Source: an uncultured Planctomycetota bacterium (GTDB lineage Bacteria; Planctomycetota; Planctomycetia; Isosphaerales; Isosphaeraceae). From it: 64,000 bases of DNA. Shown here in pieces: positions 6,001 to 18,000 of this stretch. The stretch's first letter is position 1. Every line of letters starts with the position of its first letter. Location: the NCBI GenBank assembly GCA_963737655.1, contig CAVTTN010000002.1, positions 1,664,001 through 1,728,000 on the forward strand. The letters are read 5' to 3'. Made by a program: the position numbers.

Positions 6001-9000
6001 GATCCCAGGAGCCTCCCGTGACTCGGCGACTCCGCCCCTTCCCCGGCGTCCTGCTCGCCCCGGCCGCGGCGCTGGCCCTGATGGCCTCCGGGTGCTCGGA
6101 CTTCTCCTCGCCTCCGCCGCCGGTCGCCCCGGGGTCGTCCCCCGGTTCGATCTCGGGCGCCGTCGGCGACGGCTCCTCGGGCCTCGACCCGGAGGGGCGG
6201 AAGACGATCATCGACAACGTCTTGAAGCTGATCCGCGACGCCGCGACCAACGCCGGCGGCCACAACTTCGACATCGCCACCGAGAACCTCAACGACTACT
6301 TCGCCCCCGAATCGGCCGACCGCTTCGCCATCCCCGAGGCCACCCTCGCCTATCTGAAGACCCAGAAGCTCCCGCCCGACACGATCCAGGCCGTCGCCGA
6401 CCGCCGGTTCCAGAAGAACGACGGCCGACACATCGAGGACAACGACGTCTACCACGCCATCGCCTCCCGGGTGGCCGGCGAGAGGCTCGCGGGCGAGGCC
6501 GACGACCTGCCTCGGGTCCGCCGCCTGTTCGACTGGACCGTCCGCCACGCCATGCTGGTCCCCTCGGGCTCCCTGGTCCCCTCCGGGATGCCCCAGGCCC
6601 AGGCCCGGCCATATGACGTGTTGCTCCGCGGGATGGCCACCGAGGATCGCGGCGATTGGTCCGAACGCGGCTGGCTGTTCCTGACCCTCTGCCGGCAGAT
6701 CGGCATCGACGCCGGGATGATCGCCTACACCATCCCGATCCGACCTCACGGCCCCCTGGCGAAGTACGGGACCAGGCAGTTGACCGACCGCCTCCAGGCC
6801 CTGGCCGGCACCGGGGTCCGCGACCCCATGCCCTGGGCCTGCGGCGTCCTGATCGACGGCAAGGTCTACCTGTTCGACCCCCGGCTCGGCGTGGAAATCC
6901 CCTCCGCCGACGGCCGATCGGTGGCGACCCTCGAAGACGCGGCCACCGATCCGACCGTCCTGGCCCGGCTGGACCTGCCCGGCCGAGGCTACGAACCCAC
7001 CCGGATCGACCTGGCGAGCCGGCCGGTCCACGTCCTCCTGGAATCCAGCCTCGGCAGCCTCTCCCCCCGGATGAAGCTCCTCCAGGAGGCCCTGACCGGC
7101 AAGAACCGGATGAGCCTCTACCGCGACCCGGTCGAGCAGGCCGAGGCGTTCCGCAAGGCCCTGGGCCCTCGATGCGCCGGGGTGGACCTCTGGTCCCTGC
7201 CCCTGACCGTCGAGTACCTCCTGTTCCACGACGGCAACTTCACCGCCGCCACGCTCTACCCCCTCCAGTTCTTCGAGTCCCGATGGCCCCTGCTCTCGGC
7301 GAGGCTGACGCAGCTCCGCGGCGACCTGCCCGGCGCGATCCTCAAGTACGTCTCCTTCCGGTTCTCCGACGACACCTACGAGGCCGACGGCCGGACGAGG
7401 GTCCCGCAGAACGTCCAGCACGTCCTGGACATGTTCGCCACCTATTACCTCGCCCTCGGCCAGCTCGACAAGGGGGACCGCAAGCAGGCGGAATTCCTCT
7501 TCCGGGAGACCAGGCGGCTCCTGCCCGAGCCCGTCCGGGGCCAGCCCTTCACCATGTTCGGCTGGGGGGCCGAGACCAACCTCGGCCTGATCTGCCTCGA
7601 CGCCGGCCGGACGGCCGAGGCCATCCACTTCCTGACCATCGAACAGCCCACGGCCCAGGCCCACGGCAACCTCGTCCGGGCCCGAGAGCTGATCTGGCAA
7701 GACCCCTTCGCCACCACCCCAAGCCAGGCCCAGACCGGCCGATAAGCCGCCGAAATCCTCGCGGATCGGACGCGTTCAGCCCGTCGAATCGCGGTCCCTG
7801 TCGGGTCCGCTCTTGCGGACCTCTTCGATCTCGCATCATCGCGAAGAGGTCGACAAAATCCGCGATCCGACCCGCTCAACAGGAACCTCGGACCTTCGGC
7901 GGGCGGCACGGGTCGAACCCGACCCAGGGCACCCGGCGCGAGGAGTCGGAACGGACCGACCCGACCAACCCCCGACCCGGCCAGGACCGTTCGAGCCGAG
8001 GGCCTCGCCTCGCGACGAACCCCGGACACCGACCGACCCTCGGCCCATCGCCGTCCGAACCCATCCCCGGCCCTCACGTCCCACCCCCGATCCCACGAAT
8101 CAAGATCCCGACCCCCACGTCCATCCTCGCCAATCCCTCCGAACCAAACCATCGAGACCGCACCCCACCCCCGATCACCCAATCCCGCCACCACACCCGA
8201 CCAACCTCCCGAACGCCCCCTCACGCCCCACCCCAAACGGTCCACCCATTCCGACGAAAACCGGCGACGATTCCCCAAAAATTCACTCGACACAAGCCGT
8301 TCCAGCATCCAGCTTTGCCGGTCAAAACCAAACGAATTCTCGGATCGGAACTCCTGCCCTGGCAACAGTGACTGCGCGCCAGAAAACCCTGGAAAAACCG
8401 CCCTCCGGCGCAGTTTTTCGGGAAAAAGTGTCGTCAAGTTCCTCCAAATCAACGGTCATGCACCTCTAGCCTCGAGAAAAGTTGAGCAATCCAAGAAATG
8501 AGTAGAATCCAAATCAATAAATCGCAAAACATCGGCAAAATGGACGCTCGCCAGCCCGCAAACCCGACCCCACCCGCTCCTCCCCGGCGGATTTCCCGGA
8601 AGCCCCAGACCCCCCAGGATCGCAAGCCCCGGGAACCGTCGAGTGAGCCCTCAGAAATCAAAATTTGGGTGACATGCTCACGTCTTCGTAAGAGTGGATT
8701 CGGCCGGGTTCGAATAGAAGACATGCCTACGAAGACGTGAGCATGCCATCCGACCAAAGAAAATCCTTGCAAGGCGAACTCGCCGTCGGCAAAATCAACA
8801 ACCGGCCCGAGATTATCCATCCGAAACGACGTGATAAATCACGTCGTTTCGGACGCATAATCCCGCAAATTCGGGGATTCTGCGTCACTTTCGATGTCTA
8901 CTTCATGTTAGGCGGCTCGGCAACCGGTCGAGCCGGGGAGGGGGATGCGATGCCCGTTCGGCCGTTCGCGCCTCGTCGCCGTGCCGGTCGTCGCGTCGCC

Positions 9001-15000: not shown

Positions 15001-18000
15001 AGGGGAGTCGGTTACGTTTGCAGTCTCTTCGACGGGAACATCCCCGCGAGTCGGCTCGCGGGGCGTCGCCAATGACCGGATCACGACCTCTCGGGCCAGG
15101 CTAACCTACGGGCAGGGAGCACCAAGGTGGAGACGGCCGGGAGGCCCGCGCCACACTCAGGCTACGCCGCGCCGGGTCGGCGGGCAAGTCGTCCCCGACC
15201 CCCGTTCACGCCCCGTCGGGAGCGGACGAAGGCCGCAGGATGGTTAACCTCGCGCTGCAGCGGACCCCGCACCGCCGCGGCGATTCTTGTGTTATCATCG
15301 CGTTCTCGGCGGTGCGGGTCCGCTGAGCTTTGGCGTTAGGCGGCTCGGCGAAGATGCCTCGGGACACCCGTGACGTTCGACCCCGACCGAATCATGACCC
15401 TCTCGACCATGCAGTTCCGACGTTTCGGAATCGCGTGCTGCTATCGGTTGGGGTGCGACCGCAAAGACAAGCGTCTCGCGAAGGCGCTCAAGAGACTGGA
15501 GCAATCGCTGGGGCCGCCGGCCGACGAGAGCATGCGTCGTGACGCGCTCAACGCCGCCAACTCCGCTTGCCGAGACCTCTCCGCAAGCAGCGGCGTGATA
15601 CAGGTCGTTGCCCGCACCCTTGTTTGTGCCTGCTGGGACGGTCCCAATGAGAATCTGATTGGGAATTTCGAAGCGGCGCTTGAACAAGGAGAGCACTTGA
15701 GCAGGTCCGAGATCAAGGACATTGAAAGCGAGATCTTTCGGGCTATCCTGGGCGCCTCTTCGTGAACTCTTTGGCTGGGAACGGCCATCGACGCGCGACA
15801 CTACCCCAACCCCAGGCTTTGTGGCCGGGCAGCGGCGAGGTCCGGGTAGCAAACCGACGGATTCAAGAGCGGCGGACGAGGCGCGGGCCGAGAGGGGAGT
15901 CGGTTACGCTTGCAGTCTCTTCGACGGGAACATCCCCGCGAGTCGGCTCGCGGGGCGTCGCCAATGACCGGATCACGACCTCTCGGGCCAGGCTAACCTA
16001 CGGGCAGGGAGCACCAAGGTGGAGACGGCCGGGAGGCCCGCGCCACACTCAGGCTACGCCGCGCCGGGTCGGCGGGCAAGTCGTCCCCGACCCCCGTTCA
16101 CGCCCCGTCGGGAGCGGACGAAGGCCGCAGGATGGTTAACCTGGCGCTGCAGCGGACCCGGCCCGCCGCGGTAGTTTCCGTGCTATCATCGGTCTGCTCG
16201 GCGGGCCGGTCCGCTGAGCTTGGTCGTTAGGCGGTTCGGGCACCGTTGGATCGCGCGGCGAAATCCAGAAGTCCCAACGGCAGCCCCTTGTCATCCGCCG
16301 CCGGGATCGATAGGGTCGCCGGCGTCGGTGCCACGCAGCGGAGCGAGGCTTGTCTAATCAGGGGCGTAATCCATGAAAGCCTGGAAGAAAACCTTCCCTT
16401 CGATCGGGTTCGCGATCGCCGCCGTGGCATTCCTATTCGCCGGTTTGGAGGAGCGGGTCATCGCTGGGGGGCGGCTCCGCTACCCCATGCTGAGCTTGGC
16501 ATTCTTGTACTTCGTCTTAGCCTTCGTATTCTTCGACCGAGGCCGGAAGTCAGGTGGCGAGACCGGACCGCCAAATGCCTGACCTGCTGGCTAGCCCGGG
16601 CGATGCGGCGAGGAGGAACGATCGTCAGCGGCATTCAAGGTCTCCCGGCCTCCCCGTGAACTCTTCGCGCCGACGGTTCGACATCGGTTGATACTATGTG
16701 GGCGTGATCATCGATCGGGGTCAAAAAGGGGACGGGGGTCAAAAAGGGGACGGGGGTCAAAAAGGGGACGGGGTCAAAAAGGGGACGGAGCGAATAAATT
16801 CAGCTTTTTGCATTTTGCCGCGTCTCATCCAGGCCGAACTTATTCGCTCCGTCCCCTTTTCGGCCCCCGCCGTCCCCTTTTCGGCCCCCGCGTCCCCTTT
16901 TCGGCCCCCGTCCCCTTTTCGGCCCCTCTGCCGCTGCCGCCAGTAGCCGCGCAGGGCCAGGACCGCGGCCGGCGGGCGGAAGGACGGGCGGAGCAGGCCG
17001 CACGAGTGGAGGCGCCGGAGCCACTGGCAGTCGAGCCGGTCGGTCTTGGGCCGGGCGCCGCAGTGGCTGGCCTGGCTCGGCTCGATGAGGAAGACCTCGA
17101 AGCCGCGCGATTCGAGCAGCTCGAACAGGGGGATCCAGTAGACGCCGGTGGACTCCAGGACCACCGAGGTGACGCCCTCGGCCCGGAACCAGTCGGCCAG
17201 GGCGTGGAGGTCGGCCGAGCAGGCGCCGAAGGTGCGGACCCGTCCGGGTCCGACGCAGGCGACGTGGTTGTCGGAGTGGACGTCGACGGCCGCGGCGTGG
17301 GGGTGGATGACCGGCAGGGTCGCGTCGGGATCGGGCGGCTTGCGACGGCTCATCGGGCGGCTCCGGCGGGTTGGGGCGTGGGGGCCGAGCCGCCGCGAGC
17401 CGAGAGGGGGGCCGGGGACGAGCAGTCTCCCCGACGGGAACGTCGCGGCGCCGCGTTGACACGGCGTCGCGGGTCACCAATGATGGGGCCACGGCTTCTC
17501 GGGCCAGGCTAACCTGCGGGCGGCGAGCACCAGGGAAGGGACGGCCGGGAGGCTCGCGACGGCGTGCCCCAGCGTATCGCGCCCGGTGGTCGGGGCCACC
17601 CCCGGTTCACGTCCGTCGGGGAGCGGTCGGAGACGGCGCGGAGAGTTAACCTGGCGCGGCAGCGGACCCCGCCCGCCACGACGCCTTCTGGTATCATCAA
17701 GCCTTTCCTCGGCGGGCCGGTCCGCTGAGCTTGGGCGTTAGGCGGCTCGGAGGCGCGTAAGAGGGTCGAAAGGTGCCGCGACTCCGATTCACGGTGCGGG
17801 GGATGATGATCACCGTGGCGATCGCGGGGGTAGGCCTCGGCAGCCATCGGATGCACGCGCGTCGGCTCCGTTTCCTGGACCAAGCCCGATCCCATGCGGA
17901 GTCCGAGGCACATTGCGCCTTCATGTGGAGCGAGGTCTCCGCCTACCCGGATTTCCGATGGCCGGGCGACCGGCGACCCCCGAGGCCGCCCGAGAAAGTT

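Follow-up and report, generated by a model that had tools for sequence, protein, structure and literature searches.

Nearly half of the integron attC sites of a planctomycete are filled by an IS110-type insertion sequence and its gene-less offshoot

Occupied attC sites

The window analysed here, a 64,000-nt stretch of contig C2 of an uncultured Isosphaeraceae bacterium, contains integron attC sites that are split by two kinds of element, only one of which is equipped with an intact transposase gene. Window position 1 is C2:1664001, and an offset of 1664000 was used to convert the positions of the attC scan. The survey's finding had placed the locus correctly at window positions 9000-18000 but with a wrong contig offset, 1632001 instead of 1664001.

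Nearly half of this planctomycete's integron attC sites are filled by an IS110-type insertion sequence (IS) and its gene-less offshoot. The whole-genome scan recovered 77 two-halved attC sites in 11 clusters (65 distinct sequences), 34 of them occupied; in two more occupied sites no 3' half is recognisable. The genome contains a single integron integrase (C2:6777126-6778082; TIGR02249, 475 bits versus a cut-off of 265). Whole-genome BLAST and extraction of the flanks confirmed that attC sites are interrupted at one point of the R'' box, by 28 short elements of 380 bp, six full ISs (1784-1802 bp) and two internally deleted ISs, 36 insertions in all. The earlier counts, roughly 65 attC sites with roughly 31 of them occupied and 26 short copies, were each somewhat low.

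All 36 insertions have one orientation and one insertion point, CCT^AACCT (the caret marks the point), with (G)CCT on the left and AACCT(C/T/G)GCGCTGCAGCGGACC on the right. The junction cores are unequal in all copies, with CT at one side and TT at the other. The attC scan located the following sites in the window:

9485..9579, plus strand: remainder of an occupied attC, from AAC of R'' to R' GTTAGGC
13338-13435, 14090-14184, 15246-15341, 16138-16232, 17648-17743: equivalent attC remainders
9810..9909, plus strand: empty attC, start GCCT^AACCC, one mismatch to the guide
10141-10240, 10472-10571: further empty attC sites of the GCCT^AACCC type

The three empty sites (9810, 10141 and 10472) lie in three tandem copies of a 331-bp cassette.

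The full insertion sequence and its short relative

11536..13337, minus strand: IS-A, full IS110-family IS, 1802 bp, in an attC R'' box (reference copy, 100%)
11696..13048, minus strand: DEDD transposase gene (tnp), 450 aa (Pfam PF01548, E 2.6e-17; PF02371, E 9.9e-18)
13049..13337, minus strand: left-end non-coding region (NCR) of IS-A, 289 nt, upstream of tnp
13076-13254, minus strand: predicted bridge-RNA core of IS-A, two loops (covariance-model match, 162.8 bits; consensus fold with compensatory pairs)
9105..9484, minus strand: short element copy 1, 380 bp (BLAST); RNA core 9223..9395, covariance model 197 bits
13710..14089, minus strand: short element copy 2, 99.7% identical to copy 1; RNA core 13828-14000, model match
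14866..15245, minus strand: short element copy 3, 99.7% identical; RNA core 14984-15156, model match
15758..16137, minus strand: short element copy 4, 100% identical; RNA core 15876-16048, model match
16652..17647, minus strand: internally deleted IS-A copy (BLAST, covariance model); RNA core 17388-17564
16715..16930, no strand: long hairpin element whose arms are GGGTCAAAAAGGGGACGG repeats, located at the deletion junction within the deleted IS copy

IS-A is, as had been proposed, an IS110-family element with a long NCR upstream of its transposase. The protein contains the Pfam domains DEDD_Tnp_IS110 and Transposase_20 and scores 251.9 bits against NCBIfam NF033542, 'IS110 family RNA-guided transposase' (cut-off 140). 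The transposase gene is preceded by 289 nt and followed by 160 nt of non-coding sequence, and the flanks in the window are GCCGCCT and AACCTCGCGCTGCAGCGGACC. The other five full copies are 96.5-99.6% identical to this one, and the 450-aa ORF is intact in all six. The deleted copy retains 67 bp from the right end and some 720 bp from the left part, its longest ORF being only 198 aa. The hairpin element inside it is foreign to the IS and is present at only three loci in the genome.

The short element consists of about 265 nt homologous to the IS left end, about 100 nt more and the right end AAGAGTTCACGAAG; copy 1 has no ORF with a transposase match. Among the 28 copies, 26 are at least 95% identical to the window copy, 15 of these being identical, and two are 87-88% identical. 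The RNA region shows about 75% identity to IS-A across the aligned stretch and retains all nucleotides that are invariant throughout the IS clade. Its description as a transposase-less relative that keeps the entire two-loop RNA region and both ends is supported.

Predicted bridge-RNA fold

The upstream NCR, which the short element retains in full, is predicted to fold into a two-loop structure like that of a bridge RNA, with compensatory changes. Evaluation on 34 distinct sequences (20 genomes) found 90.1% of cells paired, versus 40-46% with slid partners, and 14 pairs are changed on both sides, versus 3-9 in the slid controls; the observed values were reached in none of 500 shuffles. Many of the G-U pairs fit the transposase strand only. 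The RNA region matched no Rfam family, and no sigma-70-like promoter or terminator was found in the integrated copy. The sole RNA run found, a soil metatranscriptome, contains one 175-nt contig that is less than 90% identical.

Target guide and choice of attC sites

13199..13205, minus strand: putative target guide of IS-A, AGGUUAG (read from the sequence; guide/flank covariation in relatives)
9340-9346, minus strand: putative target guide of short copy 1, within the RNA core

The loop segment AGGUUAG, identical in the IS and the short element, equals flank plus core and is complementary to CT+AACCT on the attC top strand; it corresponds to the right target guide in IS621 terms. The earlier view that this loop reproduces the attC target and changes along with the flank in relatives is supported, the covariation being seen in 19 other genomes of the family with 14 guide types. 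The guide 5-mer is identical to the last five flank bases in 74 of 85 distinct insertions and matches four of the five in 9 more. Counted over the 14 distinct 5-mers, 60 of 70 positions agree with the flank, a value reached in none of 100,000 shuffles (mean 22.6, maximum 52).

Occupancy follows the start of the attC: 34 of 53 sites with AACCT are occupied, versus 0 of 24 with any other 5-mer (AACCC, GACCT and others; Fisher p = 2e-8), including 0 of 14 AACCC-type sites. On distinct attC sequences the figures are 32/50 and 0/15 (p = 8e-6). None of the 75 non-attC CTAACCT sites in the genome is occupied; thus, base pairing of the 7-mer alone does not explain the restriction to attC.

A second suggestion, that a left-target guide is formed by GCCGCC, or by CCUGCC in the short element, was rejected, because this segment sits in the loop and 3' arm of the small hairpin GGUGC-NNNNN-GCCCG, which is conserved among relatives irrespective of target. 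The left-target guide stretch co-varies weakly with the target (38.1 of 114 matches versus 27.9 expected; 30 of 20,000 shuffles; one register only), and in this genome CCU is the most that matches.

Donor guide

13117..13131, minus strand: putative donor guide of IS-A, GUUC-CCGU-CGGGGAG (sequence comparison with its own right end)
9264-9278, minus strand: putative donor guide of short copy 1, GUUC-CCGU-CGAAGAG (CGAAG equals its own end CGAAG)

The last 7 nt of the IS-A donor guide equal its own right end CGGGG plus the core AG, and GUUC equals the GTTC of that end. Covariation of the donor guide with the element's own end is supported in 74 of 75 elements, which fall into three states (TGGGG in 11 genomes, CGGGG in 2 and CGAAG in 2). 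The match of each guide to its element's own end suggests that the short element works with an RNA of its own and that only the transposase is borrowed. A donor-side guide for the left end was not found; positions 4-8 of that end vary, whereas hardly any variation occurs in the 5' half of the donor loop.

Proposed mechanism and alternatives

These sequence data argue for a scheme that is probably correct, in which an autonomous IS encodes a bridge RNA guiding insertion into attC, and the short derivative supplies its own RNA while using the IS transposase in trans. The bridge RNA would be encoded by the left-end NCR of the 1.8-kb IS110-group element, on the transposase strand. Through AGGUUAG, one loop would pair with CT+AACCT in the R'' box, the 5' end of attC, so that the insertion falls between GCCT and AAC in antisense orientation relative to the cassettes; the second loop would pair through the discontiguous guide GUUC..CGGGGAG with the IS's own right end and core. 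The 380-bp element appears to be an internal-deletion derivative of a related IS that lost the transposase and kept the bridge-RNA gene, both recombination ends and the same target guide, with a private donor guide, CGAAGAG, fitting its changed right end. Its own bridge RNA, most likely transcribed, would be bound by transposase from the six intact IS copies, which would allow excision of the short element as a circle and insertion into more attC sites, possibly to the present day. It would then be a natural case of a guide-RNA-only hitch-hiker, a bridge-RNA gene with two ends.

The bridge-RNA region makes up most of the left end (about 290-320 nt), and thus every derivative composed of a left and a right end in relatives keeps it. 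Such transposase-less derivatives exist in genomes G038 (489 bp; 97% identical to the resident IS at the left end and 90% at the right), G005 (476 bp) and G026 (two copies, 488-489 bp), all of the same clade, and they bear the same guides as the full ISs. Together with the target guide shared by IS and short element, this would fit mobilisation in trans by the IS bridge RNA or by protein recognition of the ends, the short element's RNA gene being retained merely as an obligatory filling of the left end. This is nevertheless unlikely, since the short lineage has two changed bases in its right end (GGGG became GAAG) and the same two changes in its donor guide, and the changed pair still matches in G080, a genome of the same genus in which the short element has only 83% overall identity. 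Paired with the end of the short element, the IS guide CGGGGAG would have mismatches at 2 of its 7 positions, and the helices of the short-element RNA keep pairing, relative to the IS, by compensatory changes.

It is less likely still that the short element is now immobile, having been spread by a lost or external master, with the resident IS-A transposase unable to use it. An autonomous master with CGAAG-type ends was indeed found neither in 121 family genomes nor in species-representative genomes (pattern scan) or metagenome contigs; G080 and G026 harbour short elements without a close transposase, in assemblies that are 77% and 60% complete; and the short element is only about 75% identical to IS-A over the aligned part of the RNA region. 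However, the 15 identical copies and the 26 that are at least 95% alike indicate a recent burst, the clade-invariant nucleotides are all present, and for IS1111 elements it is documented that diverged transposases can share an RNA, a seekRNA being able to serve transposases only 46% identical (PMC11187229). Very improbable is passive multiplication, by duplication or integrase shuffling of cassettes already carrying an insertion. One pair of copies (C2:1673105 and 6786655) shares both flanks, a few others share one, and cassettes are duplicated in this genome, as in the 331-bp tandem; however, 35 of 36 flank pairs are distinct (34 cassette-side and 24 attC-side flanks), and the element body is nearly invariant while the adjoining attC loops differ. 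In addition, the bottom-strand insertion point, GTT^AGG, differs from the integrase crossover, G^TT, and relatives with other guides occupy non-attC targets.

Comparison with known systems

ISs targeting attC and MITE-like elements derived from IS110 are already known, and the present system is a variant of those. For IS621 of the IS110 group, the available parts of two reports (Durrant et al. 2024, PMC11208160; Hiraizumi et al. 2024, PMC11208158) give LTG, RTG, LDG and RDG rules and a bridge RNA that works in trans. Shared with that system are the transposase with DEDD and Tnp domains, the long upstream NCR, two internal loops each running stem, guide, small hairpin, guide, stem, the pairing of the guide 3' of the hairpin with core and flank, the discontiguous donor guide and the target core CT. 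Provided that the RNA has the architecture of IS621, gene and RNA here lie, with respect to the CT core, on the other strand than in IS621; the core in transposase orientation is AG, as for ISPpu9 (PMC12288879). Both loops here are also enclosed by an outer stem, the left-target guide is weak, the left-end donor guide was not found and the junction cores are CT and TT.

The IS1111-attC group (ISPa21, ISPst6, ISKpn4; Tetu & Holmes 2008 and Post & Hall 2009, as cited in PMC3001079 and PMC11187229) likewise inserts near the attC 5' end, antisense to the cassettes (PMC3001079), under RNA guidance (seekRNA). Its guide RNA is reported downstream of the transposase, whereas the long NCR and RNA here are upstream, as in the IS110 type, and its elements have subterminal inverted repeats, unlike those here. 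The hosts described are Proteobacteria with mobile or Pseudomonas integrons, in contrast to a planctomycete chromosome.

MITEPpu9, the ssr9 module of the IS110-family ISPpu9 in Pseudomonas putida KT2440, is likewise a multicopy transposase-less module with a small-RNA gene between copies of IS ends, and it forms circles and is proposed, like the short element, to use the IS transposase in trans (PMC12288879). Ssr9 is dispensable for transposition and, in the available text of that report, is not described as a bridge RNA, whereas the RNA retained here would be one with target and donor guides. MITEPpu9 has 8 copies versus 28, and, unlike it, the short element has a donor guide that changed together with its own end.

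A reciprocal case is that of compact, recombinase-only IS110 elements without a 5' UTR (bioRxiv 10.64898/2026.08.14.744561): they have the protein gene without the RNA, the short element the RNA without the protein gene, so that in both the two components are split between elements. Such a split implies that the bridge RNA or the recombinase acts in trans. Group IIC-attC introns are also RNA-guided to a point near the attC 5' end, antisense to the cassettes, but they are retroelements with a reverse transcriptase and an unrelated mechanism (PMC3001079).

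Elements inserted in the attC sites

The window contains a cassette array without an integrase (9000-17750) with nine attC sites on the + strand, each of the form GCCT|AAC..GTTAGGC. Six of the nine sites are interrupted: four by a transposase-less element of 380 bp (the short element), one by a related insertion sequence (IS) of the IS110 family and one by a deleted copy of that IS.

attC sites and inserted elements of the array (window coordinates; attC sites on the + strand)
9105-9484, short element, 380 bp, in attC
9810-9909, empty attC site starting AACCC
10141-10240, empty attC site starting AACCC
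10472-10571, empty attC site starting AACCC
11536-13337, full IS, 1802 bp, in attC
13710-14089, short element, 380 bp, in attC
14866-15245, short element, 380 bp, in attC
15758-16137, short element, 380 bp, in attC
16652-17647, internally deleted IS copy, in attC

The three empty sites start with AACCC, not AACCT, and belong to a 331-bp cassette that is repeated three times in tandem at 9473-10575, two of the copies being identical over 300 nt.

The consensus of attC sites consists of an R'' box RYYYAAC and an R' box GTTRRRY around an imperfect palindrome. A scan for both halves over the whole 7.63-Mb genome identified 77 sites of 95-98 nt with the boxes GCCTAAC and GTTAGGC (65 distinct sequences in 11 clusters), of which 34 are occupied; two further occupied sites have no recognisable 3' half. 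These boxes, the arrangement in arrays and an integron integrase encoded in the same genome (C2:6777126-6778082 on contig CAVTTN010000002.1, here C2; TIGR02249, 475 bits) identify the sites as attC. All 36 insertions (28 short elements, 6 full ISs and 2 deleted ISs) share one insertion point and one orientation, with 35 distinct flank pairs among the 36. The survey's finding that these elements occupy attC sites is thus confirmed; its counts (about 65 sites, about 31 occupied, 26 short copies) were somewhat low, and its window coordinates are right, with the offset of 1632000 to be replaced by that of C2:1664001-1728000. Insertion of the elements by the integron integrase was rejected because the insertion position is wrong.

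These data show that nearly half of the recombination sites of a chromosomal integron outside Proteobacteria can be interrupted. An occupied attC site may still fold because insertion leaves ..GGTTAAC.. in place of GCCTAAC. If it does, the short element could ride with cassettes moved by the integrase and could alter which cassettes are excisable.

The 1802-bp element is an IS110-type IS

The IS contains an ORF on the minus strand (11696-13048) with the domains DEDD_Tnp_IS110 (PF01548, E 2.6e-17) and Transposase_20 (PF02371, E 9.9e-18), and its product matches the NCBIfam model NF033542, 'IS110 family RNA-guided transposase', with 251.9 bits (cut-off 140). Six full copies, each with an intact 450-aa ORF, and two deleted copies occur in the genome. 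The non-coding region upstream of the ORF measures 289 nt versus 160 nt downstream, and the match to the structured RNA model described below falls in the upstream region. In the IS110 group, as set out in PMC11187229, the transposase gene is preceded by its guide RNA and by the longer of the two non-coding regions; by this criterion the long upstream region makes the IS one of IS110 type, not of IS1111 type. Judged by gene layout, the upstream RNA and long non-coding region likewise place it outside the IS1111-attC group, which belongs to the IS1111 clade and has a downstream seekRNA. A tblastn search of plasmids was uninformative as to subgroup: the best match had 50% identity and was labelled merely 'IS110 family transposase'. 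A lack of subterminal inverted repeats is a further mark of the IS110 group as opposed to IS1111. The IS contains an asymmetric inverted repeat of 7-9 bp (ends are read in transposase orientation throughout): CGTGAAC lies 36-42 nt in from the left end, and GTTCACG, only 4 nt from the right end, is accounted for by the donor guide.

The six IS copies are the only sources of a close transposase in the genome. The seventh IS110-family gene (C2:4847237-4848526; positions 1737-3026 of locus L218), located beside a cassette array, encodes a transposase that shares 34% identity with the IS transposase. The RNA upstream of it (L218 1620-1769) weakly matches the same RNA model (31.4 bits) and has the guide GUGUUAG. 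This element, whose guide differs, was considered as a helper or master of the short element and set aside as too distant.

A conserved fold of the bridge-RNA kind

RNAalifold applied to nine variants of the IS and short element predicts an outer stem around two modules, each composed of a stem, an internal loop and a hairpin. A covariance model built from the 173-position RNA core and run on 121 genomes of the family has matches in 19 of them besides this one. Across 34 distinct sequences, in an alignment fitted to the covariance model itself and thus favouring the structure, 90.1% of the cells of the 41 pairs are paired versus 40-46% with slid partners, and 14 pairs show changes on both sides where the slid controls have 3-9; none of 500 shuffles attained these values. 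The fold therefore has the two internal loops and the compensatory changes of a bridge RNA, and its frequent G-U pairs are compatible with the transposase strand alone.

An Rfam search found no match to a bridge-RNA family; the sole matches were spurious ones to microRNA models, on a hairpin at 16715-16930. No promoter or terminator was recognised in a scan of 9000-9600, and inspection by eye of the junction between right and left ends revealed no convincing promoter. In a soil metatranscriptome run, a single 175-nt contig, <90% identical, aligns with the part of the short element that holds the guide RNA (9286-9427). This contig was rejected as a sign of short-element transcription: it comes from a relative and demonstrates neither transcription nor the organism.

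The target guide and its strictness

The loops were read with the guide rules of IS621, an IS110-group element with a bridge RNA, as presented in PMC11208160 and PMC11208158. The left end starts with AAC in every relative, and the five bases outside it equal the variable 5-mer of the RNA segment GCCCG-N-[NNNNN]-AG-C, which is situated in the first loop, 3' of a small conserved hairpin. The guide AGGTT is present in this genome and in the family genomes G080, G082 and G038, with attC-like flanks at 5/6 of their insertions and a different flank at one in G082. The guides of other genomes are GGGTT, AGCGA, GGTGG, AGTGG, GGATG, CATTT/CATTC, CACAT and CAAAA, as well as TTGGC in G012, a reading made by eye and shifted by one base from the register of the script. 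Among 85 distinct insertions, guide and flank match at 5/5 positions in 74 and at 4/5 in 9, counts that include the outliers G019 (1/5) and G012 (3/5 in the script's register). Over the 14 distinct 5-mers, guide and flank agree at 60 of 70 positions; shuffling gave a mean of 22.6 and a maximum of 52, and none of 100,000 shuffles reached 60. By analogy with IS621, AGGUUAG would be the right target guide, pairing with CT+AACCT when the strand antisense to the RNA is taken as top. This reading keeps the IS621 order (left guide, hairpin, right guide) and the CT core.

Occupancy follows the guide. In this genome, 34 of 53 attC sites with AACCT are occupied versus 0 of 24 with any other 5-mer (p = 2e-8); counted on distinct attC sequences, the values are 32/50 and 0/15 (p = 8e-6). 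All 14 AACCC sites of the genome are empty. CTAACCT is also present at 75 places outside attC contexts, none of them occupied; an additional determinant in the attC context, or loss of the insertions made elsewhere, would account for this. So strict a rule, with no insertion at sites one mismatch away from the 5-nt guide and none at the 75 matching sites outside attC, may inform work on target fidelity.

The left target guide proposed earlier (GCCGCC, or CCUGCC for the short element) is part of the hairpin GGUGC-N5-GCCCG, where it occupies the loop and the 3' arm. It is rejected as a guide because this hairpin is conserved whatever the target. The position of the left target guide in IS621 corresponds to the 11 nt between the closing stem of the loop and the small hairpin. 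Comparison of this stretch with the left flank gave a weak signal in one register (38.1 of 114 matches versus 27.9 expected; 30 of 20,000 shuffles as high), with good individual fits in G029, G087 and G009. In the attC-targeting elements of this genome it matches CCU only, which fits (G)CCT being the sole conserved part on that side of the target.

The donor guide changes together with the right end

The second loop of the IS contains, 3' of its hairpin, GUUC-CCGU-CGGGGAG, and the right end of the IS is GTTCA-CGGGG followed by AG. In the short element the guide is ..CGAAGAG and the end ..CGAAG, and in most relatives they are ..UGGGGAG and ..TGGGG. The donor guide equals the element's own right end in 74 of 75 elements and co-varies with it through three states. 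The lineage of the short element has therefore changed two bases in both guide and end. The CGAAG pair recurs in G080, in a short element 83% identical overall. This co-changed pair is the main argument that the short element would recognise its donor by means of its own RNA. A further consequence is that the RNA of the IS would be a poor fit to the end of the short element, mismatching it at 2 of 7 positions.

For the left end, neither a second donor guide nor any complementary stretch was found. Within the donor loop, the 5' half (UCGACCUUGUCAUU in most relatives) hardly varies, while positions 4-8 of the left end do. Inspection by eye of 15 lineages for identity or complementarity to positions 1-13 of the left end found only UCGAC resembling GTCGA, without co-variation. 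The core copies flanking the element differ: on the + strand of the window, the right-end junction has CT and the left-end junction has TT. This difference is found at all 36 junctions of this genome and in all relatives, the left end always starting with AA in the RNA sense. The asymmetry would fit a donor core of TT and a target core of CT.

Origin and mobilisation of the short element

Full copies of the short element number 28 in the genome. Of these, 26 share 95% identity or more with the window copy (15 of them being identical) and two are at 87-88%. The first ~265 nt are homologous to the left end of the IS (~75% identity over the 167 nt aligned by BLAST), followed by ~100 nt of other sequence and then by the right end. 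The right end AAGAGTTCACGAAG is close to that of the IS, AAGAGTTCACGGGG, and AAGAGTTCACG is common to the two. The left-end identity of ~75% and the similar right end indicate that the short element is an internal-deletion derivative of a related, non-resident IS. It is MITE-like in that it lacks a transposase gene, shares its ends with the IS, is present in 28 copies and uses the IS's own insertion point. Similar transposase-less derivatives with left and right ends of the IS clade exist in G038 (489 bp), G005 (476 bp) and G026 (two copies), and these are of independent origin. The G038 derivative adjoins its parent IS; identity between the two is 97% in the left end and 90% in the right end. 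G080 and G026 contain no close transposase, in assemblies only 77% and 60% complete.

An autonomous master of the short lineage was not found in the 121 family genomes, in species-representative genomes or in metagenome contigs. A 28-nt pattern scanned against species-representative genomes hit four loci in one other assembly, and the three that were fully checked are short elements or lie at contig ends. A 23-nt donor-loop pattern had no match in metagenome contigs, and a 15-nt left-end pattern gave only chance matches in unrelated phyla of the genome collection. From the copy number, the identity of the copies, their distinct insertion sites and the co-change of guide and end, we infer that the short element is probably mobilised in trans by the IS transposase. 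A tentative extension, to which we give slightly less than an even chance, is that it is a self-guided parasite: with a complete bridge RNA and a diverged donor code recognising its own ends only, it would borrow just the recombinase from the resident IS, having reached 28 copies versus 6 of its helper and filled two thirds of the matching attC sites.

Relation to known systems

ISs of the IS1111-attC group, as described in PMC3001079, target attC near its 5' end and are antisense to the cassettes, and the position is likewise here. That group uses a downstream seekRNA according to PMC11187229, whereas the same niche is filled here by an element of the IS110 group whose predicted bridge RNA lies upstream; attC targeting thus arose in the IS110 group as well. 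MITEPpu9 (ssr9 module) is a MITE-like IS110-family module proposed to use the IS transposase in trans; the account in PMC12288879 does not describe its RNA as a bridge RNA, whereas the short element keeps the bridge-RNA region. Recombinase-only elements, the subject of a 2026 preprint (bioRxiv 10.64898/2026.08.14.744561), are the reciprocal of the short element. A literature search for bridge-RNA-only, orphan or transposase-less IS110 elements, the scope of which stopped short of the preprint supplements, found MITEPpu9 alone and no bridge-RNA-only element with its own donor code. The kinds of element are therefore already known and the variant is new. On the sequence evidence the finding is well supported; it is genuine and informative about mechanism.

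Bridge-RNA recombinases are under development as programmable genome-writing tools, and the separability of RNA and protein and the encoding of donor recognition are live questions. Two related elements in one cell, with a shared target guide, different end-matched donor guides and one protein gene, constitute a natural experiment. The arrangement allows a direct test of whether a resident recombinase can be recruited by a foreign bridge RNA, and of the number of mismatches in the donor guide that insulates one element from another.

Other features of the window and of related elements

Related full ISs are arranged in tandem in G039 (loci L083/L084) and G009 (loci L073/L088), the second copy lying a few bases past the right end of the first, where the target is recreated. 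G030 (loci L074-L082) has eight related IS copies in a short tandem repeat of AGTCCCATTT units, with the guide variants CAUUU and CAUUC side by side in one genome.

The long hairpin at 16715-16930 is one of three loci in all, with C2:286713 and C2:6792338. Its left arm is composed of 2-4 GGGTCAAAAAGGGGACGG units, its centre of ~60 nt and its right arm of 1-4 CCGTCCCCTTTTCGGCCCC units, and each locus is at a deletion junction within an IS copy or an attC site. Direct repeats of ~72 nt extend over 19728-22770, where 19 copies of a 112-nt unit, 62-85% alike, are spaced by multiples of 72-73 nt; this is probably a repetitive coding region.
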